Below the pieces are notes generated by a model, which had not been told where the DNA came from, did not search any database, and was given only the letters and a program-made list of their open reading frames with translations. From Candidatus Krumholzibacteriota bacterium (GTDB lineage: Bacteria; Krumholzibacteriota; Krumholzibacteriia; LZORAL124-64-63), in contig JAJRWA010000048.1 of NCBI GenBank assembly GCA_024277025.1, positions 29,653 through 93,652 of the forward strand: a DNA stretch of 64,000 nt, written 5' to 3'. The position numbers and the translations under genes were made by a program. Shown piece by piece: positions 31,390 through 64,000 of the stretch (position 1 is the first letter of the stretch; the number at the start of each line of letters is the position of its first letter).

Positions 31390-31397
31390 GTCCGGGG

Positions 31398-34859: not shown

Positions 34860-35367
34860 TTTGGCCGGCGCACTGAACCTGAAGACCGGAGTCCTGGTCC
34901 TGAGTGACAAGGGTTCCCGCGGCGAGCGCGAGGACGCCAGTGGCCCGGCCCTGCTGGACTTCCTGGCCGACCAGGGGGTGCCGGACGCCGAACTGGTCAT
35001 CCTGCCGGATGAGCGCCCGCTTATCGCCGAGTCCCTGGCGCGGTGGGCGGACCAGGAGGGTTTCGACCTGATCCTCACCTGCGGCGGCACCGGGGTTTCG
35101 CCCCGGGATGTCACCCCGGAAGCGACGCGCGACGTCATCACCACCGAGCTGCCGGGCTTCGGCGAACAGATGCGGGCGGTCAGCCTCACCAAGTCGCCCC
35201 ACGCCATCATCAGCCGGGCGACCGCCGGCATTCGCCGGCACACCCTGATCATCAACCTGCCGGGCAGTCCCCGGGCCGCGGTCGAAAATCTGGCCGCGGT
35301 CTGGCCGGCGGTGCCGCATGCGATAGCCAAGTTGCAGGGGGACGACGCGGACTGCGCCCAGGGTTAG
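34840..35367 (+). CDS. moaB: molybdopterin adenylyltransferase-like MoaB/MogA family protein
   Basis: LTCGGTGVSPRDVTPEA and GVLVLSDKGSRGEREDASG are typical of MogA/MoaB. The ATG at 34840 overlaps the moaC 3' end by 20 nt; alternative starts are GTG 34813 and TTG 34861. Confidence 0.75.
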   Translation: MATGRVDLAGALNLKTGVLVLSDKGSRGEREDASGPALLDFLADQGVPDAELVILPDERPLIAESLARWADQEGFDLILTCGGTGVSPRDVTPEATRDVITTELPGFGEQMRAVSLTKSPHAIISRATAGIRRHTLIINLPGSPRAAVENLAAVWPAVPHAIAKLQGDDADCAQG

Positions 35368-48595: not shown

Positions 48596-49159
48596 ATGAA
48601 TTCACGCCAGTCCAGGATCCTGCTCAGCGGTGCGCTCGGGGTGTTGCTGTTGGCCACGCTGACCGGTTGCTCCAGCATCTCGGTCAACTATGACTATGAT
48701 CAGAATGCGGCCTTCGGCAGCTACCGAACCTACGCCTGGCTGGGATCTCCGGACACCGGCAACGCGAATCCGGCGGTCAACAAGCTGAGCAGCGATCTGT
48801 TGGACAAGCGGATTCACGAAGCGGTCGATGCCGAGATGGGCAACCGCAACATCACCGCGGCGGACAATCCCGACGTGCTGGTGAAGTACTTCCTCGGCAC
48901 GGAGGACAAGGTGCAGGTCACCGACTGGGGCTATCGCTATTCCGACTACTACTGGGGCCACGGTGGCCGTCAGATCGACGTGACCCAGTACACGGAAGGC
49001 ACTCTCGTGGTCGACATTATCGACGCGGCGACCAAGACTCTGGTCTGGCGCGGTACGGCGACCGGTACGGTTGACGGCCAGCAACGTACCCCGGAGCAGC
49101 TGCAGGAACGCATCAATGAAGTGGTCGCCAAGATTTTTGCCAACTTCCCGCCCAAGTAA
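48596..49159 (+). CDS. DUF4136-like lipoprotein
   Basis: Lipobox LLATLTGCSS. Size and pattern (YDYDQNAAFGSYRTYAW...) resemble the DUF4136 family. Confidence 0.5.
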   Translation: MNSRQSRILLSGALGVLLLATLTGCSSISVNYDYDQNAAFGSYRTYAWLGSPDTGNANPAVNKLSSDLLDKRIHEAVDAEMGNRNITAADNPDVLVKYFLGTEDKVQVTDWGYRYSDYYWGHGGRQIDVTQYTEGTLVVDIIDAATKTLVWRGTATGTVDGQQRTPEQLQERINEVVAKIFANFPPK

Positions 49160-50412: not shown

Positions 50413-51120
50413 CTACTTCTGGACCGGTAGACCGGCTGCGGTCCAGGCCTTGATGCCGCCGTTCAGGTTGGTCACGCTGGTGAAACCGTGGTCGATCAGC
50501 AGACGAGCGGCGACGGTACTGCGGTTGCCCGACCGACAATAGACGAAGACCGGCTTGTCCTTGTACGCCGCCAACTCACCCAGTTTCTCCTGCAGGACCT
50601 GCACCGGCACCAGATGGGCATCCTTGAGATGGCCATCGCTGAATTCTCCGGCCGTGCGCACATCCAGGATGAACGGATCCACGTTGCTGATCAAAGCGGC
50701 GCCTTCGGCGGCGGACACTTCCGCATATCCCGTCGCGACCAGATCCACGGCTGTGATGGCACCTTTGGCCGAACCGGCCGTGAAGGGGTAGCTGCCCACT
50801 TGCGGCACCTTGAAATAGGCTTTCTCGCCCTCGGCCACCGGATAGCTCTTGTTCACGTCGAGGTCGGGGATGACAATCGTGATCGCCTGGCCAGTAGTTG
50901 ATTCCAGACGCACATAATCACCGCGGTATATGGTGAAGTTCTGCGGCTCGGCCGCCGTCGGGTCGACAGTCAGCACCCGCAGGCCGGCTTCGATACGGCC
51001 CGAAATGGCGGGGCCGGCGTGGTCGGCCTGGGACTGGTCGGCCGCTCCGCCACCATTGCAGGCGGCGATGATAATCAGCAGGCTCACGGACAGGATCAGG
51101 ACGGGGATGCGGCGGGCCAT
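50413..51120 (-). CDS. lipoprotein with C-terminal rhodanese-like (sulfurtransferase) domain
   Basis: Trimmed to MARRIPVLILSVSLLIIIAACNGG (ATG 51120, GGAGGA RBS). Rhodanese active-site loop VYCRSGNRS. Confidence 0.65.
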   Translation of the reverse strand: MARRIPVLILSVSLLIIIAACNGGGAADQSQADHAGPAISGRIEAGLRVLTVDPTAAEPQNFTIYRGDYVRLESTTGQAITIVIPDLDVNKSYPVAEGEKAYFKVPQVGSYPFTAGSAKGAITAVDLVATGYAEVSAAEGAALISNVDPFILDVRTAGEFSDGHLKDAHLVPVQVLQEKLGELAAYKDKPVFVYCRSGNRSTVAARLLIDHGFTSVTNLNGGIKAWTAAGLPVQK

Positions 51121-51489
51121 GGATTTCCTCCGGAAGAAATGACAGAGAGCAAATTCCGAACAGTGGGGATTATGTTTACGAAGTGTTGGCATGGCAAGGA
51201 ATTCCGAGCAATCTGGTCGAAAAGGAATTTCCAGAATGTTAGCAAATGTCAAAACATAGGAAATAAATGGGAGATGGCGGTTCCTTAACCGGATTTTAAG
51301 TTATTGAAAATAAATATCATAACGAAGAATGACGCCGTGGATTTTTTTTTTGATTTCCCAAACGAGTCGACTACATTTCTTGCAGTTAAGAAAAATCGCA
51401 ACAAAGAATGTGCGATGCTCCGGAACGGCCCACCCACCCAACCATGGGGCGAGCCCGGGCCTCCGGAAGAACTGCGAAAGGCGCCGCCG
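51121..51489 (+). promoter_or_regulatory. roughly 370-nt AT-rich (about 40% GC) intergenic leader upstream of the mrp/mbx-like operon
   Basis: A marked compositional dip in a 65% GC background. It contains ggaattccgag...ggaatttccag half-site repeats and a T10 run, so it probably holds the operon promoter and operators. Confidence 0.35.
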
Positions 51490-51990
51490 ATGAAGCGTGC
51501 ATTTCCCTTCCTGTTCGTGACGGTGGTCATGTGGCTGCTCTGGCTGGTTCTGGCCGGCAATCTGGATCCCCAGGAAATGCTGGCCGGCGCCGTGGTCGCC
51601 GTGCTGGTGGCGGCCCTGCGCAGCAGCGGACCCTGCCTGCTGGGTGGTCCCGAAGTCCTGCATCCCAGGCGGATTCTCTACGCCCTCGCCTACATCCCCT
51701 ACATGATCTGGGCCATTGTTCTGGCCAACCTGGACGTGGCCGGTCGCGTGCTCCGGCCGCGCCTGAAAATCAACCCCGGCATTGTCAAGGTCCGCACGAA
51801 CCTGCACAGCCAGGTCGGCCGCATGATCCTGGCCAATTCCATCACTCTGACCCCCGGCACCCTGTCGGTGGATATCGTCGGTGACGACATGTACATCCAC
51901 TGGATTGATGTCGAGTCGCGGGATGCCGAAGCCGCCACGCGCAAAATCGCCGCGGGCTTCGAAAAGTATCTGGAGGTCATCTTTGGTTGA
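51490..51990 (+). CDS. mrpE: Na+/H+ antiporter subunit E homolog (MrpE/MnhE; MbhA-like)
   Basis: Trimmed to MKRAFPFLFVTVVMWLLW (ATG 51490). Pattern typical of MnhE (LANLDVAGRVLRPRLKINPGIV...LANSITLTPGTLSVD). Confidence 0.7.
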   Translation: MKRAFPFLFVTVVMWLLWLVLAGNLDPQEMLAGAVVAVLVAALRSSGPCLLGGPEVLHPRRILYALAYIPYMIWAIVLANLDVAGRVLRPRLKINPGIVKVRTNLHSQVGRMILANSITLTPGTLSVDIVGDDMYIHWIDVESRDAEAATRKIAAGFEKYLEVIFG

Positions 51991-52243
51991 TCTGCTGTTG
52001 AAAGCCGCGCTGCAGTTCGCCGGCCTGGCCATTTTGCTGGGTACCTGGCGCCTGCTCAAGGGACCGGACGCGCCCAATCGCGTCGTTGCCCTGGATGTGC
52101 TCACCCTGGTGACCATGCCGTTGCTGGTCGGTCTGGCCATCATGGCTGACCGGGTGATCTACCTGGATGTCGCGCTGGTCTACGCCGTACTCGCCTTCCT
52201 GGGCGTGCTGGCTCTGGCCCGCTACTACGATCGGGGGATCTGA
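51983..52243 (+). CDS. mrpF: antiporter subunit F homolog (MrpF/MnhF; MbhB-like)
   Basis: TTG at 51983 overlaps the mrpE stop. A small 3-TM protein with MnhF-like RLLKGPDAPNRVVALDVL. Confidence 0.55.
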   Translation: MVDLLLKAALQFAGLAILLGTWRLLKGPDAPNRVVALDVLTLVTMPLLVGLAIMADRVIYLDVALVYAVLAFLGVLALARYYDRGI

Positions 52244-52244
52244 G

Positions 52245-52643
52245 ATGACTGATCTGATGCGACTCGTGGGGGCGTCCCTGACCTTTCTGGGGTCCGCGTT
52301 CCTGTTTCTGGGCGCGCTGGGCATCTTCCGCATGCCGGATATCTACAACCGCATGCAGGCCGGCACCAAGGCCACGACCCTGGGCAATATCCTGACCCTG
52401 ACCGGATTGGGCCTGCTGGCGCCGGCCTGGCTGCCCAAGATCATGCTGATCGTGCTGTTCGTGCTGATCACCAATCCCCTCAGTAGCCACGCCCTGGCGC
52501 GGGCGGCCCACCGCAGCGGCGTAACCCTGGCCCGCGAGACGATCTATGACGCTCTGCGCGAGGACGAGGAAGCGGCCGGCATCGGTCCCGGCTCGCCCGT
52601 GGAGATCGATGCGGCGGCCGGAAGTTCAGAGGTGACACCATGA
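52245..52643 (+). CDS. mrpG: antiporter subunit G homolog (MrpG/MnhG; MbhC-like)
   Basis: ATG 52245, 1 nt after the mrpF stop. MnhG-like RMPDIYNRMQAGTKATTLG. Confidence 0.7.
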   Translation: MTDLMRLVGASLTFLGSAFLFLGALGIFRMPDIYNRMQAGTKATTLGNILTLTGLGLLAPAWLPKIMLIVLFVLITNPLSSHALARAAHRSGVTLARETIYDALREDEEAAGIGPGSPVEIDAAAGSSEVTP

Positions 52644-52879
52644 TGTATCTGGATCTGCTGGTCTGCCTGGTCCTGGTCCTGTCCGGCGTGGCGGCCATGA
52701 ATACCCGCAATCTGGTTTCGGCTGCGGTCATGGTCGGCGTCGTCAGCCTGCTGGTCAGCTATCTCTTCCTGCGCATGGGCGCGCCCGACGTGGCGATGAC
52801 CGAGGCGTCCATCGGTGCGGGCCTCAGCACCATCATCTTCCTGATCGCCATCCGGCGCACCGAGGAGGAGGAGCGATGA
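52640..52879 (+). CDS. DUF4040-like small membrane subunit (MnhB N-terminal-domain homolog; MbhD-like)
   Basis: 79 aa with 2-3 TM helices. ATGA overlap with mrpG. Confidence 0.45.
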   Translation: MMYLDLLVCLVLVLSGVAAMNTRNLVSAAVMVGVVSLLVSYLFLRMGAPDVAMTEASIGAGLSTIIFLIAIRRTEEEER

Positions 52880-53589
52880 AACAGATCCTGTCGGTCGTGC
52901 TGCTGCTGGCCATGGGCTGGTTCCTGGTGGGGCTGGTGCCCCTGGGACAACCCACTGAGCCGGGCCGCGTGGCGCAGCACTATATAGACAACGGTATCGA
53001 CGAGAACCGCGGCGCCAACCTGGTGACCAGCGTTATCGTCAACTACCGCGGCTTCGATACGCTCGGCGAGGTGACGGTGCTCTTCCTGTCGGTCGCCGGT
53101 GCGGGCTTCGTCCTGCGGCGGCGCGACGGCCTGGTCCGCCACGAGCACCGGCCCTCAAGTGAGATCCTGCAAACCGGTGCCCGGATGCTCTTTGCGCCGA
53201 TCGTCGTGTTTGGCGCCTACATCTTCGTGCACGGACACCTGTCGCCGGGTGGCGGCTTCCAGGGCGGTGCGGTGATCGCCTCGGCGGTGATGCTGCTGCT
53301 GCTGGCCGATCGTTCCCACCACCTGCCGCACGGCCTGATGCACTGGCTCGAGTCCATGGCCGGCTTTGGCTACGTCATGGCCGGTGTGGCCGGTTTGGTC
53401 GTGGCCGGATCCTTCCTCTCCAACCAGGGCGTGCTGCCCCTGGGCACCTGGAACCGCCTGTTCTCGGCCGGCATCATCCCGATCATCTACATCCTGGTCG
53501 GGCTGAAGGTGGGCACCGAGCTGAGCTCGCTGCTCGACGTGATGATCGACACCGGCCGGCCCGCCCGGCAGGAAGGGGGCCGGTCATGA
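52876..53589 (+). CDS. MnhB-domain membrane subunit (MrpB-like; MbhE/F-like)
   Basis: The canonical MnhB motif NLVTSVIVNYRGFDTLGEVTVLF. ATGA overlap upstream. Confidence 0.7.
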   Translation: MKQILSVVLLLAMGWFLVGLVPLGQPTEPGRVAQHYIDNGIDENRGANLVTSVIVNYRGFDTLGEVTVLFLSVAGAGFVLRRRDGLVRHEHRPSSEILQTGARMLFAPIVVFGAYIFVHGHLSPGGGFQGGAVIASAVMLLLLADRSHHLPHGLMHWLESMAGFGYVMAGVAGLVVAGSFLSNQGVLPLGTWNRLFSAGIIPIIYILVGLKVGTELSSLLDVMIDTGRPARQEGGRS

Positions 53590-53954
53590 ACGCCGTGACG
53601 CCCGCGACCCTGTACCTGGTGACGGCGATCCTGCTGATCCTGATCGGCCTGGCCGGCGTCCTGGTGCGGCGCAATATCCTGAAGATGGTGCTGGGCTTTG
53701 CCCTGGCCGATACCGGCATCAACCTGCTGATCGCCACCCTGGGCAGCAACCCCGAACGCACCGCGCCCATCCTGGACAAACCTGAACTGTTGGCGAACCC
53801 CTCGCTGGTGGTCGACCCGATCCCGCAGGCCCTGGTGCTGACCGCCATCGTCATCGGTCTCGGGGTCACGGCCCTGATGCTGGCCTACGTCATTCGCCTG
53901 TACGCTCTGCGCCAGAGCCTGGACATCCGTGACTTCGGGAGGCTGAAGTGGTAA
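53586..53954 (+). CDS. NuoK/MrpC-like small membrane subunit (MbhG-like)
   Basis: 122 aa, 3 TM helices, NuoK-like MVLGFALADTGINLLIA. Confidence 0.7.
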   Translation: MNAVTPATLYLVTAILLILIGLAGVLVRRNILKMVLGFALADTGINLLIATLGSNPERTAPILDKPELLANPSLVVDPIPQALVLTAIVIGLGVTALMLAYVIRLYALRQSLDIRDFGRLKW

Positions 53955-56900
53955 TCGATCCCATCCTGCTGGTAGCCGTACCGCTTGGTGTTGCTTTCCT
54001 GCTGCCTTTGTTCAGCAAGCTGGGCCGGACCGCGGCCACGGCCGTGCAAGGGCTGACCATCGTGTTCACGGCCCTGGTGGCGGTGTCCTGGTTGCCCGGT
54101 CTGCTGGACGGAAGCCTGGCGCCGGCCAATATCCTGACCGGCGGCTACGACGCCCCGATCGCGATCAACCTGCACTTCGGCTTGACCGAGGCCGTGCTCT
54201 GTCTGCTGGCTTCGCTGACCGCCCTGGGCAGTTTGTCCTACCTGTCGGTGCGCGAAGACGAGCACACGATCGGGCGCAGCGGCCTGCTGCAACTGCTGAT
54301 CATGACCGGTGCCTTCGGCCTGATCATGACCCGCGACCTGTTCAACCTGTTCGTGTTCCTGGAGATCGCTTCCATCGGCACCTACGCCCTGGTCGCCTTC
54401 GGCAAGGAAGAGACCAGCCTCGAGGCCGGCTTCAAGTACATGCTGACCGGCGCGGTGGCGAGCATCTTCCTGCTGATCGGCATCGCCTTCCTGTACAAGC
54501 TGACCGGCACCCTGAACATCGACGACATGGTGGGCCGGATGCCGCCGGCCGCGACGGCGGGCCTGGCTACGGTCATCCTGTTCCTGCTGATGGGCATGGC
54601 CATCGAGCTGAAGCTGCTGCCGGTCAACGGACCGGCCCTGGACCTGTATGACGGCGCGGACCCCGGCGTGATGGCCCTGCTGGTGGGCACCGTGGTCAAT
54701 GGCGTGCTGTTTGCCTTCTGGAAGATCGCCCTGCTGGTGCCCGGCACCTGGGACACGGCGATCATGACCCTGGGCATGGTGACTTTCGTGGGCAGCAACC
54801 TGCTGGCTGTCGCCCAGGATCGGCCGCGGCGCATGCTGGGCTACAGCTCAAGTGCCCAGATCGGCTTGCTGGTCTTTCTGGTGCCCCTGGTGCAACAGGG
54901 CACGGTGGCGTTGGCGGGCGCTGGCCTGCTGTTGATCAACCACACGCTGGCCAAAAGCGGCCTGTTGTGGCTGTCGGGCAAACATGCGGGCGAGACGCGC
55001 CGTGAATGGACCGGTGCCTTTGCCGGCAGCGTGGTGATGCGCACGGCCCTGATCATCTTCATTCTGGCGATCACCGGCTTGCCGCCCTTTCCCGGCTTCT
55101 GGGGCAAGTGGCAGGTCCTGAGCGACCTGATGGCCGGCGGTTACGGCTGGTGGGCGCTGCCGCTGCTGATCGGCTCGCTGCTGGAATTCGTCTACTACTA
55201 CGGCTGGTACCGGTATGTGCGCACGCCGGCGACCAGCAACGTTTCGGCGCGGCCATTGGGCGGGGCTTCCGACCTGGGTGGGGTCGTGGCTTTTGCCCTG
55301 GCCGCGCTGGTTTTCGGCGTGTGGCTCATGCGGGATCTGCCCGTGATGGGTGACCGGGTGCTGGTCTTCCTGACCGGTGTGGGCCTGGTGTTGACGCTGT
55401 TGCGTCGCCTGCCCCGCGTGGTGCTGGCCGCGACCGCGACGGCGGCCCTGGGCCTCGCGGCCTGGATCATGGCCACCGGCGGCGGTTTCGACCTGACGAC
55501 TCCGTCGGGCCTGTTCCACCTGCTGATCATCGGGGCCGGTCTGCTGGTGTCGATCGCCGGTTTGGCCGGCAGCTCGGGCACCGGTGAACGCTTCCACGGT
55601 CTGTTTCTGATCATGATCGCCTCGCTGCTGCTGCTGGTCAGCACCGACAACCTCCTGCTGTTCTTCGTGGCTTGGGAAGTGATGACCTGGACCAGCTATC
55701 TGGTGGTCACCTCCGGCCGGCTGGGCGCCAAACCCGGCCAGCTGTACATGGTGTTTTCCGGCGCGGCCGGCTTCCTGCTGCTCGGCGGGTTCATGCTGGC
55801 CATCGGCGCCGGCCACACCACGATCACCGGTCTGGGTCTGCTGACCGGATCGACGGCGGCCTGGACCTGGGGCCTGCTCGTAACCGGCTTCCTCGGCAAG
55901 TCGGCCGCCTGGGGCCTGCACATCTGGGCACCCGGTGCTTACAGTGAAGCCCCAGACCTGTTCACGCCGTTCCTGTCGGGCGTGATCTCCAAGATCCCCA
56001 TGTTCGGGATCGCCATGGTGGCCTTCCGCATCGCCGCGGGCAACCTGCCGGCCATCGGCGCGGTGGACCTGACCTGGTTGTTGGCGCTGATCGGCGGCCT
56101 GACCGCCTTCGGCCTGACCTTGGCCGCGGTGTTCCAGGAGGATGCCAAGAAGTTGCTGGCCTACTCGTCGGTCGGCCAGGTGGGCTACATCGTGGTCGGC
56201 CTGGCGATCCTGACGCCCCTGGGCTGGACCGCCGCCATGTTCCACGTCGTGCACCATCTCTTGTTCAAGGGCCTGCTGTTCCTGGCCATCGCCGGCGTGA
56301 TCATGCGCACCGGCACGCGCACCATGTACGAAATGGGCGGCCTGATCAAACGGATGCCCGTCAGCTTCATTTCGGTGCTGATCGGCATCATTGCCCTGTC
56401 CGGCGTACCGCCGCTGGCCGGCTTCACCGGCAAATGGCTGCTCTACCAGGCGCTGCTGGCCAAGGGCTGGCTGTTCATTCTGGTGCTGATGATGTTCTCG
56501 TCGGTCGTGGCCTTCATCTATATGTTCCGCCTGATCCACTCGGTCTTTCTCGGGCAGCTCAAGCCCCGGCACCGGGACATCAAGGAGGCGCCGCTGCCCC
56601 TGGTCATCTCCGAGGTGCTGATGATCGCCGGCGTGATGGCCCTGGCGGTGTTCCCGCAACTGCTGCTCAATCCGCTGAACGCCATGATGCACACCCAGTT
56701 CGGCCTGGACGCCCTGCGTATCGACGGCACGGTGCTGACCACCATGAGCGGCCACACACTGAACGCGACAGGCATGATGGTGCTGGTCCTGGTAATGTTC
56801 GTGGCCATGTTCCTGGTGCTGCTTCTGGTCAGCCCGCCCATGCGCAAGATTCGGCAGCTGGACATTGGCTTCGCCGGCGAGGTGCCACCGCCGGCCGAGG

Positions 56901-57115
56901 AAATCCACTTCGCCTCGCGCTTCGCCCAGCCCTACGAGCGGGCCTGGGCACCTTTCCTCAAGCCGCGGGCGACAAACTTCTGGCGGTCGGTGACCGAGAA
57001 CACCGGCGGCGTGATCGAGGCCGTGCGCAAGATCTATTCGGGCAACGGGCAGACCTACGTCCTGTATCCGGTGCTGTTGGTGGTCGTGTTCGCCCTGTTG
57101 GGCCTGGGAAGGTAG
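53948..57115 (+). CDS. fused tandem antiporter-like subunit (two NuoL/M/N-MrpD-type modules in one 1055-aa protein; MbxH+H'-like)
   Basis: GTG 53948 with a GGGAGG RBS. Two complete Proton_antipo_M-type modules, each with the YSS.xQ.G motif (LGYSSSAQIGLLVF at about aa 300, LAYSSVGQVGYIVV at about aa 740) and conserved TM Lys/Glu positions. Confidence 0.75.
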   Translation: MVIDPILLVAVPLGVAFLLPLFSKLGRTAATAVQGLTIVFTALVAVSWLPGLLDGSLAPANILTGGYDAPIAINLHFGLTEAVLCLLASLTALGSLSYLSVREDEHTIGRSGLLQLLIMTGAFGLIMTRDLFNLFVFLEIASIGTYALVAFGKEETSLEAGFKYMLTGAVASIFLLIGIAFLYKLTGTLNIDDMVGRMPPAATAGLATVILFLLMGMAIELKLLPVNGPALDLYDGADPGVMALLVGTVVNGVLFAFWKIALLVPGTWDTAIMTLGMVTFVGSNLLAVAQDRPRRMLGYSSSAQIGLLVFLVPLVQQGTVALAGAGLLLINHTLAKSGLLWLSGKHAGETRREWTGAFAGSVVMRTALIIFILAITGLPPFPGFWGKWQVLSDLMAGGYGWWALPLLIGSLLEFVYYYGWYRYVRTPATSNVSARPLGGASDLGGVVAFALAALVFGVWLMRDLPVMGDRVLVFLTGVGLVLTLLRRLPRVVLAATATAALGLAAWIMATGGGFDLTTPSGLFHLLIIGAGLLVSIAGLAGSSGTGERFHGLFLIMIASLLLLVSTDNLLLFFVAWEVMTWTSYLVVTSGRLGAKPGQLYMVFSGAAGFLLLGGFMLAIGAGHTTITGLGLLTGSTAAWTWGLLVTGFLGKSAAWGLHIWAPGAYSEAPDLFTPFLSGVISKIPMFGIAMVAFRIAAGNLPAIGAVDLTWLLALIGGLTAFGLTLAAVFQEDAKKLLAYSSVGQVGYIVVGLAILTPLGWTAAMFHVVHHLLFKGLLFLAIAGVIMRTGTRTMYEMGGLIKRMPVSFISVLIGIIALSGVPPLAGFTGKWLLYQALLAKGWLFILVLMMFSSVVAFIYMFRLIHSVFLGQLKPRHRDIKEAPLPLVISEVLMIAGVMALAVFPQLLLNPLNAMMHTQFGLDALRIDGTVLTTMSGHTLNATGMMVLVLVMFVAMFLVLLLVSPPMRKIRQLDIGFAGEVPPPAEEIHFASRFAQPYERAWAPFLKPRATNFWRSVTENTGGVIEAVRKIYSGNGQTYVLYPVLLVVVFALLGLGR

Positions 57116-57119
57116 CGCG

Positions 57120-58034
57120 ATGGAACTGTTCCCCAAGATCGGTTGGACCCTGTTGAGCCTGTTCGTGGCCATCAACTACGGGTTCCTCATCAACGGACTG
57201 ATCCGCAAGGTCATGGCCCGGATCCAGGGCCGCTTCGGACCGCCCCTGTGGCAGCCGTACATCGACATGGGCAAGCTGCTGGTGCAGCGCAACTCGATCA
57301 TGCACGGCTACATGCATTGGCTGGGGCCGATCTTCCGCTCGGTCGGCGGCATGGGCGTGTACGTGCTGGTGCCGGTGGTGATCGGCGAACCGCGCCTGGC
57401 CGGGTTCAGCGACATGGGCGATCTGCTGCTGATGATGTACTTCATGTTCTTCGGCTCGCTGGGCATGGCTCTGGGTGCCGGGGATGCCGGTCATCCCCAC
57501 AGCCCGATCGGCGTCAGTCGCGGCCTGAGCCAGATGACGGCCTTCGAAATGCCTTTCATTCTGGCGGTGGTCGCCCTGGCCGCCCACGTGGGCAGCTTCG
57601 ACATCAACGCGATCATCGCCACCCAGCAGCACGGCGTGCTGAGCTGGAACCTGTTCGCCAATCCGTTTGCTTCGGCGGCGGCGTTCCTGGCCCTGCTGGG
57701 CATGAACATGTACGCGCCGTTCAATATCGTGGGGGCGCCGACGGAAATCCCCGTCGGTCCGGCCACCGAGTACCAGAACTCGTACCTGTCGCTGATGATG
57801 ATCGGCCGCAGTGCCCTGGCCATCGGCAAGATGGTCATGTTCATGGACCTTTTCCTCGGCGGGGCGCACTCGATCGGCGCGGCCGTGGTCAAGATCCTGG
57901 CCATTTACTTCTGGTCCGTCTTCGTGGGTGCGGTCTTTCCCCGCTTCCGCACCGAACAATCGGTTCGCTTTTTTTTGCGCTGGCCCACCGCCTTTGGCGT
58001 GGCGGGCGTGCTGCTGACCCAGTGGGTGAGGTAA
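57120..58034 (+). CDS. NuoH-like membrane subunit (MbhM/EchB/HyfC family)
   Basis: NuoH signature region IRKVMARIQGRFGPPLWQPYIDMGKLL. 8 TM helices. Confidence 0.75.
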   Translation: MELFPKIGWTLLSLFVAINYGFLINGLIRKVMARIQGRFGPPLWQPYIDMGKLLVQRNSIMHGYMHWLGPIFRSVGGMGVYVLVPVVIGEPRLAGFSDMGDLLLMMYFMFFGSLGMALGAGDAGHPHSPIGVSRGLSQMTAFEMPFILAVVALAAHVGSFDINAIIATQQHGVLSWNLFANPFASAAAFLALLGMNMYAPFNIVGAPTEIPVGPATEYQNSYLSLMMIGRSALAIGKMVMFMDLFLGGAHSIGAAVVKILAIYFWSVFVGAVFPRFRTEQSVRFFLRWPTAFGVAGVLLTQWVR

Positions 58035-58038
58035 AACG

Positions 58039-58707
58039 ATGAAGAAGTTCGATCCGGATCGACCCTGGGACCTGACGACCCTGCCGACGACCATGGCACC
58101 GCAGGGCTCGCGTCCCCACGCGCCGGTGGAGGACCAGTGCTTCCTCGGCGCCGAGGCCGATATCAAGCAGCCGCCCAAGCTGCAGGAGGCCGTGGCCACC
58201 ATCAAGAACTGGTTCCGGGCCAGCAGCCTGAACGTGCTGGCCTTCGGCACCGGCTGCGGCGCCATCGAGCTGCGTCCGCTGTCGACCAGCCGTTTCGACA
58301 TGTCGCGCTTCGGCATCCCCGGCGCGCCGACACCGCGCCAATCCAACGTGTTCATCATCTCGGGCTACCTGTCGGTCAAGACCCTCACACGCGTGATCCG
58401 CTGCTACGAGCAGATGCCCGATCCCAAGTGGGTCGTCGCCCTCGGCTCGTGCACCATCAACGGCGGCATGTACTGGGACTCCTACAACACGATCAAGGTG
58501 TTGGATCTGTACCTGCCGGTCGACGTCTACGTCAGCGGCTGCATGCCGCGGCCCGAGGCCCTGATCGCCGGTTTCCAGTACCTGATGGACGACGTGAAGA
58601 AAGGCAAGGCCAACGGCTGGCACCACTACCTGGAGAACCTCGAGTGGTACCGCGAGAACCAGAAACAAGTCATCACCGACTGGGATCTTCCCAACTACAA
58701 CTGGTAG
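58039..58707 (+). CDS. NuoB-like [4Fe-4S] small subunit (MbhJ/EchC-like) with roughly 60-aa N-terminal extension
   Basis: FGTGCGAIE, LGSCTINGG and VSGCMPRPEA match the NuoB Cys ligand contexts. The first motif has a single Cys rather than CC. Confidence 0.7.
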   Translation: MKKFDPDRPWDLTTLPTTMAPQGSRPHAPVEDQCFLGAEADIKQPPKLQEAVATIKNWFRASSLNVLAFGTGCGAIELRPLSTSRFDMSRFGIPGAPTPRQSNVFIISGYLSVKTLTRVIRCYEQMPDPKWVVALGSCTINGGMYWDSYNTIKVLDLYLPVDVYVSGCMPRPEALIAGFQYLMDDVKKGKANGWHHYLENLEWYRENQKQVITDWDLPNYNW

Positions 58708-58713
58708 GGAGCC

Positions 58714-59295
58714 ATGTTCGATATCAACCACGGCAATCTCGATGACAGCCCGGATGTGGGCCAGGAAATCGTCCGCCGGATCCACGACCGGTTCGGCGAC
58801 TTCCCCGCACGTTTCCAGAAGGCGGACCTGGTCCGGCTGGACGTGCCGCAGAAGGACATCATCCCGGTGCTGAGTTGGCTGCGCACCGAAACACCCTTCG
58901 TGCAGCTGACCCACCTGACGGCCGTCGACTGGCTGGAGGACGGCCAGTTCGAACTGATGTACCTGGTCACGGCGCCGGACCTGATGGTCAGTCTGCACCT
59001 GTGTGTGCGCCTGGACCGCGCCAAGGCCGAGGCCGAAAGCGTGTTCAACCTCTGGCTGCAGGCCGAGACCTACGAGCAGGAAATCAACGAGATGTTCGGC
59101 ATTCATTTCCCGGGCAGTCCCCGGCAGGGCGTGCCGTTCATCCTCGAGGGCTGGCGGGATATGCCACCCATGCGCCGCGACTTCGACACCGTGGCCTACT
59201 GCGACCGCACCCATCCGGTGCGTCCGGGCCGCGAGCACCAGGACAGCCGCGTGTATGTCGGCCGCAAGTTCGGCGAGAAGGGGTATCTCAAATGA
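58714..59295 (+). CDS. NuoC-like (30 kDa subunit; MbhK-like)
   Basis: Size, position between the NuoB and NuoD homologs, and the ERExxDMFGIxF-like stretch YEQEINEMFGIHF. Confidence 0.65.
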   Translation: MFDINHGNLDDSPDVGQEIVRRIHDRFGDFPARFQKADLVRLDVPQKDIIPVLSWLRTETPFVQLTHLTAVDWLEDGQFELMYLVTAPDLMVSLHLCVRLDRAKAEAESVFNLWLQAETYEQEINEMFGIHFPGSPRQGVPFILEGWRDMPPMRRDFDTVAYCDRTHPVRPGREHQDSRVYVGRKFGEKGYLK

Positions 59296-60476
59296 GCGTT
59301 TTTGACTACACCACCCAGCCGGGCTTCGACCTGATCAGCGAGACGCCCAACGCGGGCACGACCGTCGATCCCAAGGAAGTGCAGCTGTGGTTCGGCCCCC
59401 AGCACCCCGGCATCACCGGCAACATGTCGGTGCAGTTGTGGCTCGAGGGCGACACGATCAAGCGCGGCATCACCCACGTGGGCTATCTGCACCGCGGCTT
59501 CGAGAAGCTGATGGAGCGCCGCAAGTTCATCCAGAGTTTTCCCATCGTCTGCCGCATGTGCGTGGCCGAACCGGACACCACCGAGTACCTGCTGGCCTCG
59601 TCGCTGGAAGAGCTGTCCGGTCTTGACCAGGCCGTGCCGGAAAAAGGCCAGTGGTTGCGCACCCTGGTCATGGAGATGTCGCGCCTGCAGGTGACGCTGA
59701 TGGTCATGGGCGGCCAGGTGGGCACCATGGGCATGGGCACGGCACCCAACTGGACCTACACCCTGCGGGATTTTCTGCTCGACAGCTTCGAAGAGCTGAC
59801 CGGCGGCCGCGTCTATCACATGTACATCACCTACGGCGGTGTGCGGCGCGATCTGACCCCGGGCTTTGCCCAGCGGCTGGAAGCCACCCTGGACCGGATC
59901 GAGGAGCGCCTGCCGTACCTCGACGACCTGATCCTGAACTCGGCCGTGTTCCAGCAGCGCACCCAGGGCGTGAGCGTGGTGCCGGCCGAGTGGGCCGACG
60001 AACTGGGCATCACCGGGCCGGTGCTCCGGGCCATGGGCGTCGCCCGCGACACGCGCCGGGACTATCCCTACCTGAAGTACCCCGAGCTGGACTTCAAGGT
60101 CTGCACCGCCACCGGCAGCGACATCTACGCGCGGACCCAGGTCCGGCGCGCCGAGATCGCCGAGAGCATCCACATCATCCGCCAGATCCTGCAGATGATG
60201 CCGCAGGAGGGGCCCTACTGCGCCAAGCTGCCCAACATGCTGACCTGGACCATCCCGGCCGGCTCGACCTATGTGCGGGCCGAGTCCAGCCGCGGCGAAA
60301 TGGGTTTCGTGATGGTCACCGACGGCAGCGACACGATCCGGCGCGTGCATCTGCGCGGGCCGAGCTACACCAACGCCGTGACGATCCTGGAGCGCATGCT
60401 GCCGGGCATGAACATCGCCGATCTGTCGGCCACCATGGTCTCGCTGCAGACCTGTCCGCCGGAAATCGAGAGGTAA
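59292..60476 (+). CDS. NuoD/[NiFe]-hydrogenase large-subunit homolog (MbhL/MbxL-like) retaining 3 of 4 Ni-Fe ligand cysteines
   Basis: ATG 59292 (ATGA overlap). FGPQHPGITG matches NuoD FGPQHP. The N-terminal CxxC is CRMC, at aa 87 and 90. The C-terminus ends LQTCPPEIER, where a hydrogenase has DPCxxCxxR, so the second Cys is replaced by Glu. Confidence 0.75.
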   Translation: MSVFDYTTQPGFDLISETPNAGTTVDPKEVQLWFGPQHPGITGNMSVQLWLEGDTIKRGITHVGYLHRGFEKLMERRKFIQSFPIVCRMCVAEPDTTEYLLASSLEELSGLDQAVPEKGQWLRTLVMEMSRLQVTLMVMGGQVGTMGMGTAPNWTYTLRDFLLDSFEELTGGRVYHMYITYGGVRRDLTPGFAQRLEATLDRIEERLPYLDDLILNSAVFQQRTQGVSVVPAEWADELGITGPVLRAMGVARDTRRDYPYLKYPELDFKVCTATGSDIYARTQVRRAEIAESIHIIRQILQMMPQEGPYCAKLPNMLTWTIPAGSTYVRAESSRGEMGFVMVTDGSDTIRRVHLRGPSYTNAVTILERMLPGMNIADLSATMVSLQTCPPEIER

Positions 60477-60480
60477 GCGC

Positions 60481-62256
60481 ATGAGCCTGAAGAATGTCAT
60501 CGCTCCGTTTTCGGCCTGGGCCCGTGCGGTCCAGAAACCGTTCACGGTACCCACGGCCGAGACCTTCCGGCCCGGGGCCGACCGCTACCGCGGCTGGCAC
60601 ATCAACGACACCGAGCAGTGCATCGGCTGCGGCACCTGCAGCGACATCTGCCAGAACAGCGCCATCGACATGAAGCCGGTCGACGAACCGAACAAGGGCG
60701 ACAGCGGTCTGCGGCCCCTGGTCGACTACGGTCGTTGCTGCTGGTGCGCCCTGTGCGTGGATGTCTGCCCGAGCGGTTCGCTGGGCCTGAGCAGCAACTA
60801 CATCTGGATCGACCGCGACCCGGATGTGTTCCGCTACATTCCCGGCGTGGACCGGAAGGAATGGGACAGCGACGAGAAGGGCTGGCGCAAGGATGACGGC
60901 TTCAACCTGGTCGACCCGGACCGCGTGCCCATGCCGATGATGATGCCTGTCGAGGACCGGGTGAAGACCTGGGCCGAGGTCGTCCTGGGCTACACCGAGG
61001 CCGAGGCGCGGGCCGAAGCCGCCCGTTGTGTGGAGTGCGGCCTGTGCGTGGCCGCCTGTCCGGCGCACATGCACATTCCCGACTACATCGCGGCGATCCG
61101 CGACGGCCACTACGACGTGGCCGTGAACCACATCTACGACAACAACCCGCTGCCCGAGATGTGCGGCAAGGTCTGCACACGGCGCTGCGAGGATGTCTGC
61201 TCGATCGGCGTCAACGGCGATCCGCTGGCCATCCGCTGGCTGAAGCGCTTTGCGACCGAGCAGTTCAGCGACCTGAGCGCGGTGCTCAGCCACGAGCAGC
61301 CCCAGATCGGCACCGGCAAGTCGGTGGCCGTGATCGGCGGCGGCCCCGGTGGTCTGACGACAGCCTTCTATCTGGCGGTGCGCGGTTTCAAGGTGACGGT
61401 GTTCGAGGCCTTGCCCCAAGTGGGCGGCGCCACGTTCTTCGGCATCCCCAAGTACCGTTTCCCGCTGGGTTCGCTGGAGAAGCAGATCAAGCTGATGACC
61501 GACTGGGGGGTCGAGATCAAGACCAATCACAAGGTTGAGCCTGACGAATTCAAGCAACTGCAGCAGGATTACGATGCGATCTACATCGGCACGGGCCTGT
61601 TGAAACCATCGAGCCTGCGGGCCGAGGGCGAAGATCTGCCCGGGGTGATGCCGGCGATCGAGATGCTGATCGACCACCACCTGGGCAAGACGGTCGAGGT
61701 TGGCCAGCACGTGGTTGTCGTCGGCGGCGGCAACGTGGCCATCGACGCGGCGCGCATCAGCCGCCGTCTGGGCGCCGAGGTGACCATCGCCTACCGGCGC
61801 CGCCTGGAGGACATGCCGGCGGACTACGAGGAGATCGAGGACGCCGAGGCCGAGGGCGTGCACCTGATGACCCAGAACATTCCCCTGCGCGTGGAACAGC
61901 TGCCCGGCGGCCGGCTGGACTTCATCTGGGGCCCGGCCGAGATGATCAGCGAAGGCGGCGGCCGGCCGCGGCCCAAGCTGATCGAAGGCATCGAGAACCA
62001 TCTCGCGGTGGACAAGGTCATCGTGGCCATCGGTCAGAAGCCGGATCTGCGCTGGCTGCCCGCCGATGTGGCCGAGCAGATCAGCAACAGCTGGGGCGGG
62101 ATCACCTGCGACGAGAACGGCATGACCGCCGCGCCGGGCGTGTTTGCCGGCGGCGACCTGGTGAATTCCACGGCCGACGCGATCAGCGCCATCGCCGACG
62201 GGCTCAAGGCTGTCGACGGCATCATCAACTATCTTGGCCTGGGCACCAAGCCGTAA
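60481..62256 (+). CDS. fusion of NuoI-like 2x[4Fe-4S] ferredoxin with GltD/SudA/NfnB-like FAD/NAD(P)H oxidoreductase
   Basis: The N-terminal region has CIGCGTCSDICQ and CCWCALCVDVCP (two 4Fe-4S motifs). Next come CVECGLCVAACP and GKVCTRRCEDVC, the Fe-S domain typical of the GltD small-subunit family. Then AVIGGGPGGLTTAF (FAD) and VVVVGGGNVAIDAA (NAD(P)) Rossmann motifs, and a C-terminal GVFAGGDL. Confidence 0.75.
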   Translation: MSLKNVIAPFSAWARAVQKPFTVPTAETFRPGADRYRGWHINDTEQCIGCGTCSDICQNSAIDMKPVDEPNKGDSGLRPLVDYGRCCWCALCVDVCPSGSLGLSSNYIWIDRDPDVFRYIPGVDRKEWDSDEKGWRKDDGFNLVDPDRVPMPMMMPVEDRVKTWAEVVLGYTEAEARAEAARCVECGLCVAACPAHMHIPDYIAAIRDGHYDVAVNHIYDNNPLPEMCGKVCTRRCEDVCSIGVNGDPLAIRWLKRFATEQFSDLSAVLSHEQPQIGTGKSVAVIGGGPGGLTTAFYLAVRGFKVTVFEALPQVGGATFFGIPKYRFPLGSLEKQIKLMTDWGVEIKTNHKVEPDEFKQLQQDYDAIYIGTGLLKPSSLRAEGEDLPGVMPAIEMLIDHHLGKTVEVGQHVVVVGGGNVAIDAARISRRLGAEVTIAYRRRLEDMPADYEEIEDAEAEGVHLMTQNIPLRVEQLPGGRLDFIWGPAEMISEGGGRPRPKLIEGIENHLAVDKVIVAIGQKPDLRWLPADVAEQISNSWGGITCDENGMTAAPGVFAGGDLVNSTADAISAIADGLKAVDGIINYLGLGTKP

Positions 62257-62267
62257 GGGAGAGCGCA

Positions 62268-62747
62268 ATGGTACGTGAAGGCGACGCGGGCAAGAAGAAC
62301 TTCAGCTCGGTGGACGACGCCATCGAGTTCGCGATCGGGCAGGAGATCAAGGCCGCGAATTTCTACCGCGAATTTGCCGGCAAGGCCACCCATCCGGGCG
62401 TGAAGAAGATGTGCACCGAGATGGCTGTGGAAGAGGACCGGCACAAGGAAATGCTGGAGAAACTCAAGGCCGGGCTGCCCTCCGGGCTGGCGACCGACCG
62501 GGTCACGGACCTGAAGATCAGCGACTATCTGCGCAGCTTCCGCATCGAGCCGGAGGCCGACCAGCAGGATCTGTTGATCGCCGCCATGAAGAGCGAAGCC
62601 CGCGCCGAACAGCTCTACCTGGACCTCGCGGCGATCTGCACCCTGCCCGACGTCAAGGAAGTGCTGTTGCGCCTGGCCGCCGAAGAGGGCGGCCACAAGG
62701 ACGTGTTCGAAAAGGAATACGACGACAATATCCTGGGCTCGAACTGA
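62268..62747 (+). CDS. rubrerythrin/ferritin-like diiron-fold protein
   Basis: Two E..H-type helix motifs (EIKAANFYREFA...EEDRHKEM and EARAEQLY...EEGGHKDVF). Confidence 0.55.
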   Translation: MVREGDAGKKNFSSVDDAIEFAIGQEIKAANFYREFAGKATHPGVKKMCTEMAVEEDRHKEMLEKLKAGLPSGLATDRVTDLKISDYLRSFRIEPEADQQDLLIAAMKSEARAEQLYLDLAAICTLPDVKEVLLRLAAEEGGHKDVFEKEYDDNILGSN

Positions 62748-62753
62748 GCGGCC

Positions 62754-63590
62754 CTACTTGTCGCCGAACCCGGCGCGCAGTTTGTCCAGCAGGTCCAGCG
62801 CCTCGATGTCGTTGGTCGCCGCGATGTCCTTCAATGACTGCTGCGGGTCCACCGTCAGGCCGGCTGCTTCCAGAATGCCGACGGCCTCACCCAGGTCCCG
62901 ATTGTAGTTCTCGCAGAATACGGCCAGGCTCAGCCGCCCCGAGCCCATGGGCATTGAAGTGGGGATCGCTTTGGGACCGGTCGGCCACTGTTCGGCCGGA
63001 CCTTTCATGATCTCGAACAGTTCGTGGGGTGAGAGGCCGTTGTCGTGGGCCAGTTTGGCAATGGTCACGTCCGGATCGGCAACCTCGATACCGGCTGCCG
63101 CCAGATGCGTTTTGGCCACATCCTTGTCCAAACCCACGTTGCGCAGGAATATGCGCAGGCCCGACTCTTCGGCGTGCCCGTAAGGGGGTTCGCCCAGAGC
63201 CAGCGCCGCATCGTCTTTGATTCCCTCACCCAGATTCTGGACCCAGACCATTGGGGGCACTTCCAGCAGCGTCAACGTGGCCACCACCGCCGTCACGCCC
63301 AGGGCCACATTGAAGTTCGGCGTGAAGAGTCGGAAATCCCGTGCCTTGTTCTTCATGTAGCTGGTTACCGGGCGCCAGTTGTAGTAGAGGTGGAAGAATC
63401 CGGCCAGCAGCATCAGGAAGCCTGAATTGGTGTGCAGGTTGCCCCATTGCGTCTTGGTCAGGCCCCATAATGACCAGTCGCTCCAGTAGGCGACCCGCCC
63501 CTGGGGCACGATGAACAGGATGATGCTGGAGGTGAGCATCAGGGCGATTGACATCAGCAGGGTCAACGAAACAATGCGGCGCAAGCTCAC
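62754..63590 (-). CDS. hypothetical integral membrane protein (DUF4405-like N-terminal TM pair plus soluble domain)
   Basis: Two N-terminal TM helices with conserved His/Trp (WGNLHTNSGFLML...FHLYYNW). Convergent with the rubrerythrin gene. Confidence 0.4.
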   Translation of the reverse strand: MSLRRIVSLTLLMSIALMLTSSIILFIVPQGRVAYWSDWSLWGLTKTQWGNLHTNSGFLMLLAGFFHLYYNWRPVTSYMKNKARDFRLFTPNFNVALGVTAVVATLTLLEVPPMVWVQNLGEGIKDDAALALGEPPYGHAEESGLRIFLRNVGLDKDVAKTHLAAAGIEVADPDVTIAKLAHDNGLSPHELFEIMKGPAEQWPTGPKAIPTSMPMGSGRLSLAVFCENYNRDLGEAVGILEAAGLTVDPQQSLKDIAATNDIEALDLLDKLRAGFGDK

Positions 63591-63646: not shown

Positions 63647-64000
63647 CTATCGCCTGTAGGTGAGTCCGAAGACAATCTCGGCCCGAGTGTAGGCGAAAGG
63701 CTCGTTGTTGTTGTCCGCATCCTTGTATCGGTAGCGGATCAGGCCGGTCCAGCGGCTGCTCACAATATAGTCACCAGAGAGCTTGAAATTGAGGTAATTT
63801 TTCTGTCGCAGGTCCTGCGCCGGATCGTGGTCCACGTGGGCGGCATCGTAGCTTTTGCGGCTGTACCTGAGGCTTGCCCCCACCCTGTGGCCGGTGGGCC
63901 AGCGCCAGCCTCCGCCAACTTCGATCGCGGTGCCGGAGTAGTCCCAGTAACCCTCGTACTGGTCGGTGCTGTTGAAGAACTTCAACTCACCGTTGGCCCT
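63647..64000 (-). CDS. outer-membrane beta-barrel-like protein, 3' portion (gene continues beyond window end)
   Basis: Alternating aromatic/hydrophilic beta-strand pattern (RYRYKDADN, EIVFGLTYRR). The ORF is open to the window edge. Confidence 0.3.
   Translation of the reverse strand, partial: RANGELKFFNSTDQYEGYWDYSGTAIEVGGGWRWPTGHRVGASLRYSRKSYDAAHVDHDPAQDLRQKNYLNFKLSGDYIVSSRWTGLIRYRYKDADNNNEPFAYTRAEIVFGLTYRR

Follow-up and report, generated by a model that had tools for sequence, protein, structure and literature searches.

Among systems of known structure, the closest to the 13-gene operon considered here, which lies at positions 51490-62747 (+ strand) of a 64,000-nucleotide stretch of contig JAJRWA010000048.1 from a Candidatus Krumholzibacteriota bacterium (the whole stretch is called the window, and its numbering is used throughout), is the MBS complex of Pyrococcus furiosus, formerly Mbx (6U8Y). 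In MBS, the proximal cluster of the MbsJ subunit is held by only three cysteines (C28, C93 and C123), and its open iron is the site of polysulfide reduction, while MbsJ C25 and MbsL C85/C385 are dispensable (PMC7684303). An earlier model of the archaeal enzyme as a ferredoxin:NADP+ oxidoreductase was dropped after its purification (PMC7684303).

In bacteria, Degli Esposti in 2015 described an 'mbx-like operon' that includes a gltD-like subunit and ends in a rubrerythrin, and gave it the role of a ferredoxin:NAD(P)+ oxidoreductase (PMC4758237). The genome papers on Mesotoga and Caldanaerobacter annotate the bacterial cluster in the same way. In Thermotoga maritima, mbxA is induced 4.4-fold by elemental sulfur (S0), and MBX has been proposed to be a sulfur reductase (PMC9431562). 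MBS is also up-regulated with sulfur in the deep-branching bacterium strain 3DAC (PMC10356935). No study of the biochemistry or structure of the fused bacterial form turned up in literature searches, and papers on Hyd24-12/Fermentibacteria and reviews of Nfn gave no relevant description of the complex.

Layout, affiliation and distribution

The operon consists of 13 co-directional open reading frames (ORFs) on the + strand, with coordinates and sizes as in the initial annotation of the window. The features are as follows (aa, amino acids).

51253..51489, no strand: AT-rich intergenic region between a divergent rhodanese-lipoprotein gene and the first operon gene, presumed to be a promoter/regulatory region
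51490..51990, +: MbxA/MbsA, MrpE-like, 166 aa (Pfam MNHE 1.6e-42; NCBIfam MrpE models)
51983..52243, +: MbxB, MrpF-like, ~86 aa, TTG start uncertain (Pfam MrpF_PhaF 1.1e-15)
52245..52643, +: MbxC, MrpG-like, 132 aa (Pfam PhaG_MnhG_YufB 4.6e-25)
52640..52879, +: MbxD, MbhD-type, 79 aa, related to the C-terminal part of MrpA (Pfam MbhD 6.8e-22)
52876..53589, +: MbxF, MbhE and MnhB domains, 237 aa (Pfam MnhB 2e-24, MbhE 9.6e-10)
53586..53954, +: MbxG, MrpC/NuoK-like, 122 aa (Pfam Oxidored_q2 6.8e-25)
53948..57115, +: fused MbxH-MbxH', double Proton_antipo_M, 1055 aa (PDB 6u8y_X, 6u8y_H)
57120..58034, +: MbxM, NuoH-like membrane anchor, 304 aa (PDB 6u8y_M 1.4e-39)
58039..58707, +: MbxJ, NuoB-like, proximal [4Fe-4S] cluster with three Cys ligands, 222 aa (PDB 6u8y_J 2.2e-63)
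58714..59295, +: MbxK, NuoC-like, 193 aa (Pfam Complex1_30kDa 3.2e-22)
59292..60476, +: MbxL, NuoD/[NiFe]-large-subunit-like, without an [NiFe] site, 394 aa (PDB 6u8y_L 3e-88)
60481..62256, +: MbxN plus NfnB/GltD-like flavoprotein, 591 aa (Pfam Fer4_7/Fer4_9, Fer4_20, Pyr_redox_2)
62268..62747, +: rubrerythrin-family di-iron four-helix protein, 159 aa, last gene (Pfam Rubrerythrin 8.3e-18)

The operon is genuine, its packing, Pfam matches and codon GC being far beyond chance. Genes are joined by overlaps of 4-8 nucleotides (nt), four of them ATGA, or are separated by gaps of 1-11 nt, and GGAGG-like (Shine-Dalgarno-like) sites precede most of the starts. The Pfam matches across the operon proteins are strong (E 1e-15 to 1e-80). 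Third-position GC in the 13 frames is 0.73-0.91, typical of real genes in a window of ~64% GC. A scan for the sigma-70 consensus gave nothing convincing on the + strand upstream of the operon, and a terminator scan was likewise uninformative.

The gene order is exactly that of Mbx/MBS, A-B-C-D-F-G-H-H'-M-J-K-L-N, and is identical in Caldithrix abyssi (L004), Pleomorphochaeta sp. (L005) and Thermosipho melanesiensis (L086), all of which keep the whole operon. The subunits had initially been described as rearranged and MnhB as split in two (79 plus 237 aa); nothing is rearranged, and the two short genes are the normal MbxD/MbxF pair, with an MbxF gene of 228-239 aa also present in each of these three loci.

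To place the complex, the core subunits were each compared with all PDB sequences. The L subunit matches 6u8y_L over its full length at 3e-88, versus 3.9e-58 for Nqo4 and 8e-40 for MbhL. For J, the values are 2.2e-63 for 6u8y_J, versus 1.8e-36 for complex I and 1.8e-24 for MbhJ; for M, they are 1.4e-39 for 6u8y_M, versus 4e-15 for HycD, 1.9e-14 for MbhM (6cfw_M) and 1e-7 or weaker for complex I. Residues 509-1052 of the fused antiporter match 6u8y_X (MbsH') at 2.1e-61, its N-terminal half matches 6u8y_H (MbsH) at 8.3e-56, and residues 9-117 of the N subunit match 6u8y_N (MbsN) at 1.8e-20. Across L, J, M, H, H' and N, 6U8Y leads complex I and MBH by 20-50 orders of magnitude. The best PDB matches of these subunits are thus all chains of 6U8Y, which bears out the initial assignment to an Mrp-linked, Mbx-type respiratory complex. 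It is almost certain that the operon encodes a bacterial version of the 12-subunit, complex-I-like, Mrp-linked Mbx/MBS membrane-bound oxidoreductase, together with a co-transcribed rubrerythrin-like gene. Placement of the catalytic subunits in a characterised clade, initially named as grounds for refutation, applies by half: they fall within the clade of MBS, but the electron-input module differs.

Similar to P. furiosus MBS, the predicted complex has the 13-gene order, three Cys ligands for the proximal cluster of J, a vestigial pair of NiFe cysteines in L, and two antiporter-like modules in addition to the Mrp Na+/H+ module. Unlike MbsN, which is a 208-aa ferredoxin-like protein that takes electrons from ferredoxin, the window N is longer by a domain of ~430 aa, which adds two [4Fe-4S] clusters, FAD and an NAD(P)H site. 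In addition, H and H' form one polypeptide in the window, and the residues at MbsH K250 and H330 and at MbsJ C25 differ, as detailed below.

With complex I, the window operon shares a homologous Q-module (B, C, D and I), a NuoH anchor, a NuoK-like subunit, antiporter-like subunits and a nucleotide-oxidising flavoprotein at the tip. However, the flavoprotein is of the NfnB/GltD type with FAD, whereas complex I uses NuoF with FMN. By Pfam, the operon genes include no NuoE, NuoF or NuoG and instead comprise Mrp E, F, G and B subunits, and the quinone-ligand residues and the tandem Cys-Cys of complex I are missing. The P. furiosus MBH complex, a group 4d [NiFe]-hydrogenase (6CFW), is likewise Mrp-linked, with a ferredoxin-type peripheral arm and homologous subunits, but its NiFe site has the full CxxC...CxxC, its proximal cluster has four Cys ligands, and only one of its subunits is antiporter-like.

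The Thermotogae Mbx clusters (L086 of T. melanesiensis and mbx of T. maritima) have the same genes in the same order, an NfnB/GltD-fused N and a rubrerythrin-like last gene. In contrast to the window, H and H' are separate in Thermosipho, and identity over the N-fusion junction is 44%; Thermosipho has Rex upstream, where the window has a divergent rhodanese lipoprotein instead. The Thermotogae 'mbx-like operon' is the family to which the window operon belongs.

This family is widespread. The N fusion protein has thousands of homologues, and the best 120, all of ~590 aa, come from Acidobacteria, Planctomycetota, Myxococcota, Deltaproteobacteria, Caldithrix, Bacteroidales and Spirochaetes. A junction query (N residues 1-190) against 1.84 billion representatives returned 29 clusters (E ≤ 1e-30), of which ~15 were full length. 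The genome nearest to that of the window is a Candidatus Krumholzibacteriia metagenome-assembled genome, with 91% identity in N, 92% in L and the same rubrerythrin. A scan of genome contigs with the fusion protein gave 3 loci only, its patterns being too specific; a metagenome scan seeded with an MbsL-type alignment gave 80 loci, the features of which were then surveyed by BLAST. N is fused to the flavoprotein in 64 of the 75 loci where this could be determined, is short in 4, and is not found adjacent to L in 5. H and H', called as fused or split by ORF length, form a single ORF in ~26 of the 36 loci that span the region and are clearly split in 9. The possibility that the fusions are assembly artefacts was rejected, as they recur in dozens of independent contigs.

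The operon had initially been regarded as unusual for being both bacterial and fused. This does not hold, given the frequency of the fused N, the large clade marked by the H-H' fusion, the publication of the architecture in 2015 (PMC4758237) and its occurrence in cultured Thermotogae. The operon is a typical representative of a bacterial family that is widespread and already described by bioinformatics, and what is new is the host lineage only.

The genes around the operon vary between loci. In 38 loci, the first gene downstream of N is of the rubrerythrin family in 13 and DHO_dh-like, of the dihydroorotate/dihydropyrimidine dehydrogenase type, in 6 (L004:12220-13212, L011, L021, L026, L027 and L044); an NfnA-like gene followed by a second NfnB-like gene occupies this place in two (L012:12914-15276 and L056:12999-15328), and an Npsr-like protein (CoA-disulfide reductase plus rhodanese) in one. 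The DHO_dh-like or NfnA/NfnB-like neighbours hint at additional partners of the flavoprotein module. Upstream of the operon, the genes in related loci are mostly regulators (Crp/Fnr in 4, Rex in 3 and TetR in 3). Rex genes adjoin the operon in Thermosipho (L086:475-1104, - strand) and in ~4 metagenome loci, three upstream and one downstream; a literature search found no published link between Rex and mbx.

Cofactor sites and fused subunits

The J subunit of the window aligns without gaps to MbsJ residues 10-168. Cysteines are present only at the equivalents of C28, C93 and C123, with Gly at C25. The corresponding motifs are TGCG, GSCTINGG and GCMPRPE; there is no CC, and no further candidate ligand was found. 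The pattern TGCG ... GSC ... GCMPRPE is invariant in all 64 J homologues. By its sequence, the window J keeps the MBS-type three-Cys proximal cluster.

In the L subunit, RMCVAEPD and CPPEIER, which align to RICVPEPD and CPPDIDR of MbsL, replace the two CxxC motifs. Cys is retained at the first and third [NiFe] ligand positions, and Glu occupies the second and fourth. Among 83 relatives, the two retained cysteines vary, one to Ala or Asn and the other to Tyr or Val, as expected of non-essential vestiges. The positions of Nqo4 His38 and Tyr87 are Thr and Val in the window L. The sequence therefore excludes both H2 evolution and canonical quinone reduction, as the predicted complex has neither an [NiFe] site nor canonical quinone ligands.

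Bacterial MbsL-like proteins have an extra Cys in a 'VCRxC' stretch (window 59544-59561, L residues 85-90): 58 of 83 sequences carry it, and archaeal MbsL does not. It was considered whether this Cys, in the 'VCRMC' of the window, restores a CxxC NiFe motif; this was rejected, since the Cys lies at -3 from the first ligand and the +3 position is Glu.

Relative to the archaeal enzyme, the operon has two real peculiarities. One is the N subunit, for which Pfam, PRK13984 and PDB alignments agree with the initial description as a fusion of a NuoI-like subunit and an NAD(P)H/FAD oxidoreductase. A NuoI-like domain with two [4Fe-4S] clusters spans residues 1-105 and is followed by a conserved linker; residues ~160-262 correspond to Fer4_20, with two further [4Fe-4S] clusters, and residues 280-586 to the FAD and NAD(P)H domains. 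NCBIfam PRK13984 ('putative oxidoreductase', 611 positions) aligns to residues 2-585 of 591 with 568 bits. The equivalog cut-off of 946, tuned to Thermotogae, is not reached; the fused N of T. melanesiensis (616 aa), which scores 1195, passes it.

The alignment of residues 147-586 with NfnB-type large subunits runs over the whole length and takes in both cluster motifs and both Rossmann folds. The flavoprotein part matches 5vj7_A (P. furiosus NfnII/Xfn) at 7.5e-83, and also 5jca_L (NfnI) and 4ylf_B (T. maritima NfnB); these NfnB-type matches are better than that to true GltD (6S6S, 2e-56). A 'TIAYRR' stretch is common to N and to the NADP(H)-binding NfnB-type proteins 5vj7_A, 5jca_L and 4ylf_B. 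What N shares with NfnAB/Xfn, the NADH-dependent ferredoxin:NADP+ oxidoreductase (5VJ7, 5JCA, 4YLF), lies in its C-terminal 440 residues, which match the large subunit. The NfnA partner (FAD plus [2Fe-2S]) is missing from the window operon, and the cluster chain would be wired to a membrane complex, not to free ferredoxin. No NfnA/PyrK-like gene was found in the operon or adjoining it within the window and, with no such partner nearby, Nfn-style bifurcation is not expected.

Among 53 full-length homologues of N, none of the 16 cluster-ligand cysteines varies. The second and third CxxCxxCxxxC motifs always lie 96±1 residues apart, and the linker is conserved as strongly as the flavoprotein body. 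Invariant cysteines and a conserved linker of fixed length speak for a single rigid wire that would carry electrons from the flavin to the NuoI-like clusters, that is, for a fixed geometry in which the FAD and the four [4Fe-4S] clusters of N would lead to the J cluster.

The other peculiarity is the fusion of the two antiporter modules, which was correctly recognised at the outset: a single ORF of 1055 aa encodes an MbsH/NuoN-like half (residues ~1-420) and then an MbsH'/NuoM-like half (~510-1052), including a C-terminal extension. The H' module is complete in conserved charged residues (E128, K217, K248, H336 and K399). The H module (window 53948-55250) has E138, E219 and K393, but N replaces K250 and L replaces H330. 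In all 28 fused H-H' proteins compared, the MbsH-like module has neither K250 (N, T, A, S, G or L is found instead) nor H330, whereas 6 of 8 separate H genes keep K250. H and H' are separate in Caldithrix and fused, at 1080 aa, in Pleomorphochaeta. In a neighbour-joining tree of L subunits, drawn without support values, the loci with fused H-H', including the window, form one clade, and the split forms branch at the base along with archaeal MbsL. The fusion and the loss of K250 coincide in this one clade. Literature searches found no earlier description of a K250 loss that accompanies H-H' fusion. With K250 lost in the H module, the pumping stoichiometry may differ from that of MBS.

Donor, acceptor and direction of electron flow

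The subunit homologies, the cofactor-binding motifs, the missing NiFe and quinone ligands and the family-wide conservation are observed; which donor and acceptor are used, which way electrons flow and how ions are coupled is what we infer. The likeliest function, at about even odds, is reduction of polysulfide by NAD(P)H, in which FAD and five [4Fe-4S] clusters would relay the electrons and H+/Na+ would be exported. NAD(P)H would bind the NfnB/GltD-like domain fused to N and reduce its FAD. Single electrons would then pass through the two clusters of the flavoprotein domain and the two NuoI-like clusters to the proximal cluster in J. There, in a chamber formed by J, L and M, the open iron of the three-Cys cluster would, by analogy with P. 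furiosus MBS, reductively cleave S-S bonds in polysulfide or another form of sulfane sulfur. Redox chemistry at the J/L/M site would drive H+ through the H-H' modules and the Mrp-type A-G module would exchange Na+ and H+, with an ion gradient as the outcome. Ferredoxin may still feed the same cluster chain. The rubrerythrin-like protein most likely shields the oxygen- and peroxide-sensitive clusters.

Several lines of evidence support this mechanism, among them the one-to-one matches of subunits to 6U8Y chains, the constant cysteines and linker of N and the closeness of its flavoprotein part to NADP(H)-binding NfnB-type subunits. The three-Cys pattern in J is the catalytic feature of MBS and is retained in every one of the 64 homologues. 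The same fused-N operon with a rubrerythrin is found in Thermotogae, where mbxA of T. maritima responds to S0. A rhodanese lipoprotein diverges from the operon in the window, and an Npsr-like/rhodanese gene lies next to N in one related locus. The flanking Rex genes fit an enzyme of electron disposal linked to NAD(H), as Rex is an NADH/NAD+ sensor.

Other points weigh against an NAD(P)H-driven polysulfide reductase, and the main weakness is thermodynamic. With ferredoxin, MBS has ~42 kJ/mol per two electrons, and MBH works with ~12 (PMC8165549). By our calculation, exchanging ferredoxin (~-480 mV) for NAD(P)H (-320 mV) leaves ~11 kJ; the driving force would be small, though comparable to that of MBH. 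The H module of the fused clade has lost its central lysine (MbsH K250). NfnB-type flavins in Nfn bifurcate and need the high-potential partner NfnA, which the operon is without. The sulfur-related neighbours are not conserved; the recurrent ones are rubrerythrin, DHO_dh-like genes and regulators. Part of the Thermotogae/Thermoanaerobacter literature still treats the cluster as a ferredoxin:NAD(P)+ oxidoreductase. For the fused type, the donor, the acceptor and the transported ion are also all inferred.

An ion-translocating ferredoxin:NAD(P)+ oxidoreductase, the original 'Mbx' model, would resemble Rnf: electrons would run from ferredoxin through the Fe-S chain to the fused flavoprotein and NAD(P)+, while the membrane arm pumps. 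The fused NfnB-like domain supplies the NAD(P)+ site that archaeal Mbx was without, NfnAB genes lie directly downstream in two related loci, and this is the role assigned by Degli Esposti in 2015 and repeated in the Mesotoga and Caldanaerobacter annotations. However, a route from ferredoxin to flavin would bypass the J/L/M chamber, the known coupling site of the family, and would leave both the chamber and the invariant three-Cys cluster without a role. For the archaeal enzyme, purification put an end to the model, and S0 induces mbx in T. maritima. The adjacency of Rex also speaks against it, since Rex-type control usually governs NADH-consuming, not NADH-producing, enzymes. On this evidence the model is unlikely, although it deserves to be kept in mind. 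The same holds for a sulfane reductase with dual input and a redox valve, in which ferredoxin and NAD(P)H would both reduce the chain, or the flavoprotein would equilibrate the two pools, and only electrons arriving at the proximal cluster would be coupled to pumping. The NuoI-like domain, which binds ferredoxin in MBS, is intact with 8 Cys, and NfnB-type clusters react with ferredoxin in Nfn, so that such an enzyme would reconcile both views in the literature; the ferredoxin docking surface, however, may not stay exposed with the flavoprotein attached.

Two further possibilities were considered. A simplified complex I, i.e., an NAD(P)H:menaquinone oxidoreductase with the fused flavoprotein as a one-subunit N-module, would agree with the complex-I-like architecture and with the score of L against NCBIfam PRK06075 (NuoD; 373.8 versus a cut-off of 360). 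It is nevertheless very improbable, since L is without Nqo4 His38 and Tyr87, J has the single Cys of TGCG in place of the tandem CC, the operon has no equivalents of NuoA, NuoJ and NuoL, and in all subunits MBS is much closer. A group 4 [NiFe]-hydrogenase of the H2-evolving Mbh type shares ancestry and the Mrp linkage with the complex, but is refuted at the sequence level and has practically no chance of being correct: only two of the four NiFe positions are Cys, the others being Glu, the retained pair varies to Ala, Asn, Tyr and Val in relatives, and no maturation genes were found in the window regions examined. The initial suggestion that NAD(P)H oxidation is coupled to ion translocation with polysulfide or protons as acceptor is reasonable for polysulfide, while protons are effectively excluded.

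Returning to NAD(P)H-driven reduction of polysulfide, it is tempting to speculate that the NfnB-fused bacterial MBS is a genuine ion-pumping sulfane-sulfur reductase and an anaerobic counterpart of complex I, with an input module gained independently from the GltD/NfnB lineage and not from NuoEFG. The loss of the H lysine in the fused clade may then have lowered the pumping stoichiometry to match the smaller driving force. This broader proposal is tentative, and we regard it as possible rather than probable. If NAD(P)H oxidation and sulfane reduction are both true, there would be a second, independent route to pyridine-nucleotide input in a complex-I-like machine, and many metabolic reconstructions of sediment and digester bacteria would be corrected. 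The complex occurs widely among anaerobic fermenters (Thermotogae, Spirochaetes, Caldithrix, Acidobacteria, Planctomycetes, WOR-3, Fermentibacteria and Krumholzibacteria), and its names in genome papers range from NADH dehydrogenase and glutamate synthase small chain to ferredoxin:NADP oxidoreductase and sulfur reductase. The question of an NAD(P)H-driven sulfur reductase belongs to the whole family, to which the window contributes little beyond a phylum-level host.

Last gene of the operon and flanking genes

The rubrerythrin-like gene starts 11 nt past the N gene, behind a GGGAG site. Its product has the E / ExxH / E / ExxH di-iron motifs and two isolated Cys only, with no CxxC pair. As the rubredoxin domain is missing, it is a relative of the 'erythrin' type. 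Most simply, it would be a peroxide/oxygen protectant for labile clusters.

Divergent from the operon, a lipoprotein gene (50413-51120, - strand) encodes a lipobox, LIIIAAC, and a C-terminal rhodanese domain with the active-site motif CRSGNR; a role as a periplasmic sulfane-sulfur carrier is plausible. A DUF4405 membrane protein (62754-63590, - strand) is convergent with the end of the operon and lies next to a weak MtrB/PioB-like porin fragment (63647-63985, - strand). Elsewhere, one rhodanese-containing neighbour was found (in L042, within the Npsr-like protein) and no DUF4405 neighbour. As they do not recur, the rhodanese and DUF4405 genes are not part of a conserved system. DUF4136 lipoprotein genes occur within a few kb of the operon in the window (48596-49159, + strand) and in Caldithrix (L004:19156-20396), possibly by coincidence. 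Two related loci carry a second, distant group-4-hydrogenase-like cluster a few kb downstream (L078:9343-14122 and L083:15773-20703), with NuoH, NuoB, NuoD and antiporter homologues at 27-38% identity.

The surrounding window genes include many peptidases, a glutamine synthetase, an ammonium transporter and large surface proteins, which fits a proteolytic anaerobic heterotroph. A DUF11-repeat surface protein cluster (23760-32456, - strand) includes a 1946-aa protein with OmpA and CarboxypepD_reg domains. A sensor kinase appears to be split into two neighbouring ORFs (35364-37184, - strand), with HisKA at 36333-37184 and HATPase_c plus REC at 35364-36260; this could be a frameshift or a genuinely split hybrid kinase. 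Finally, a 542-aa ORF (9448-11076, - strand) matches the family of thiol-activated (cholesterol-dependent) cytolysins (E 1.9e-33), which is unexpected in an environmental Krumholzibacteriota-like genome.

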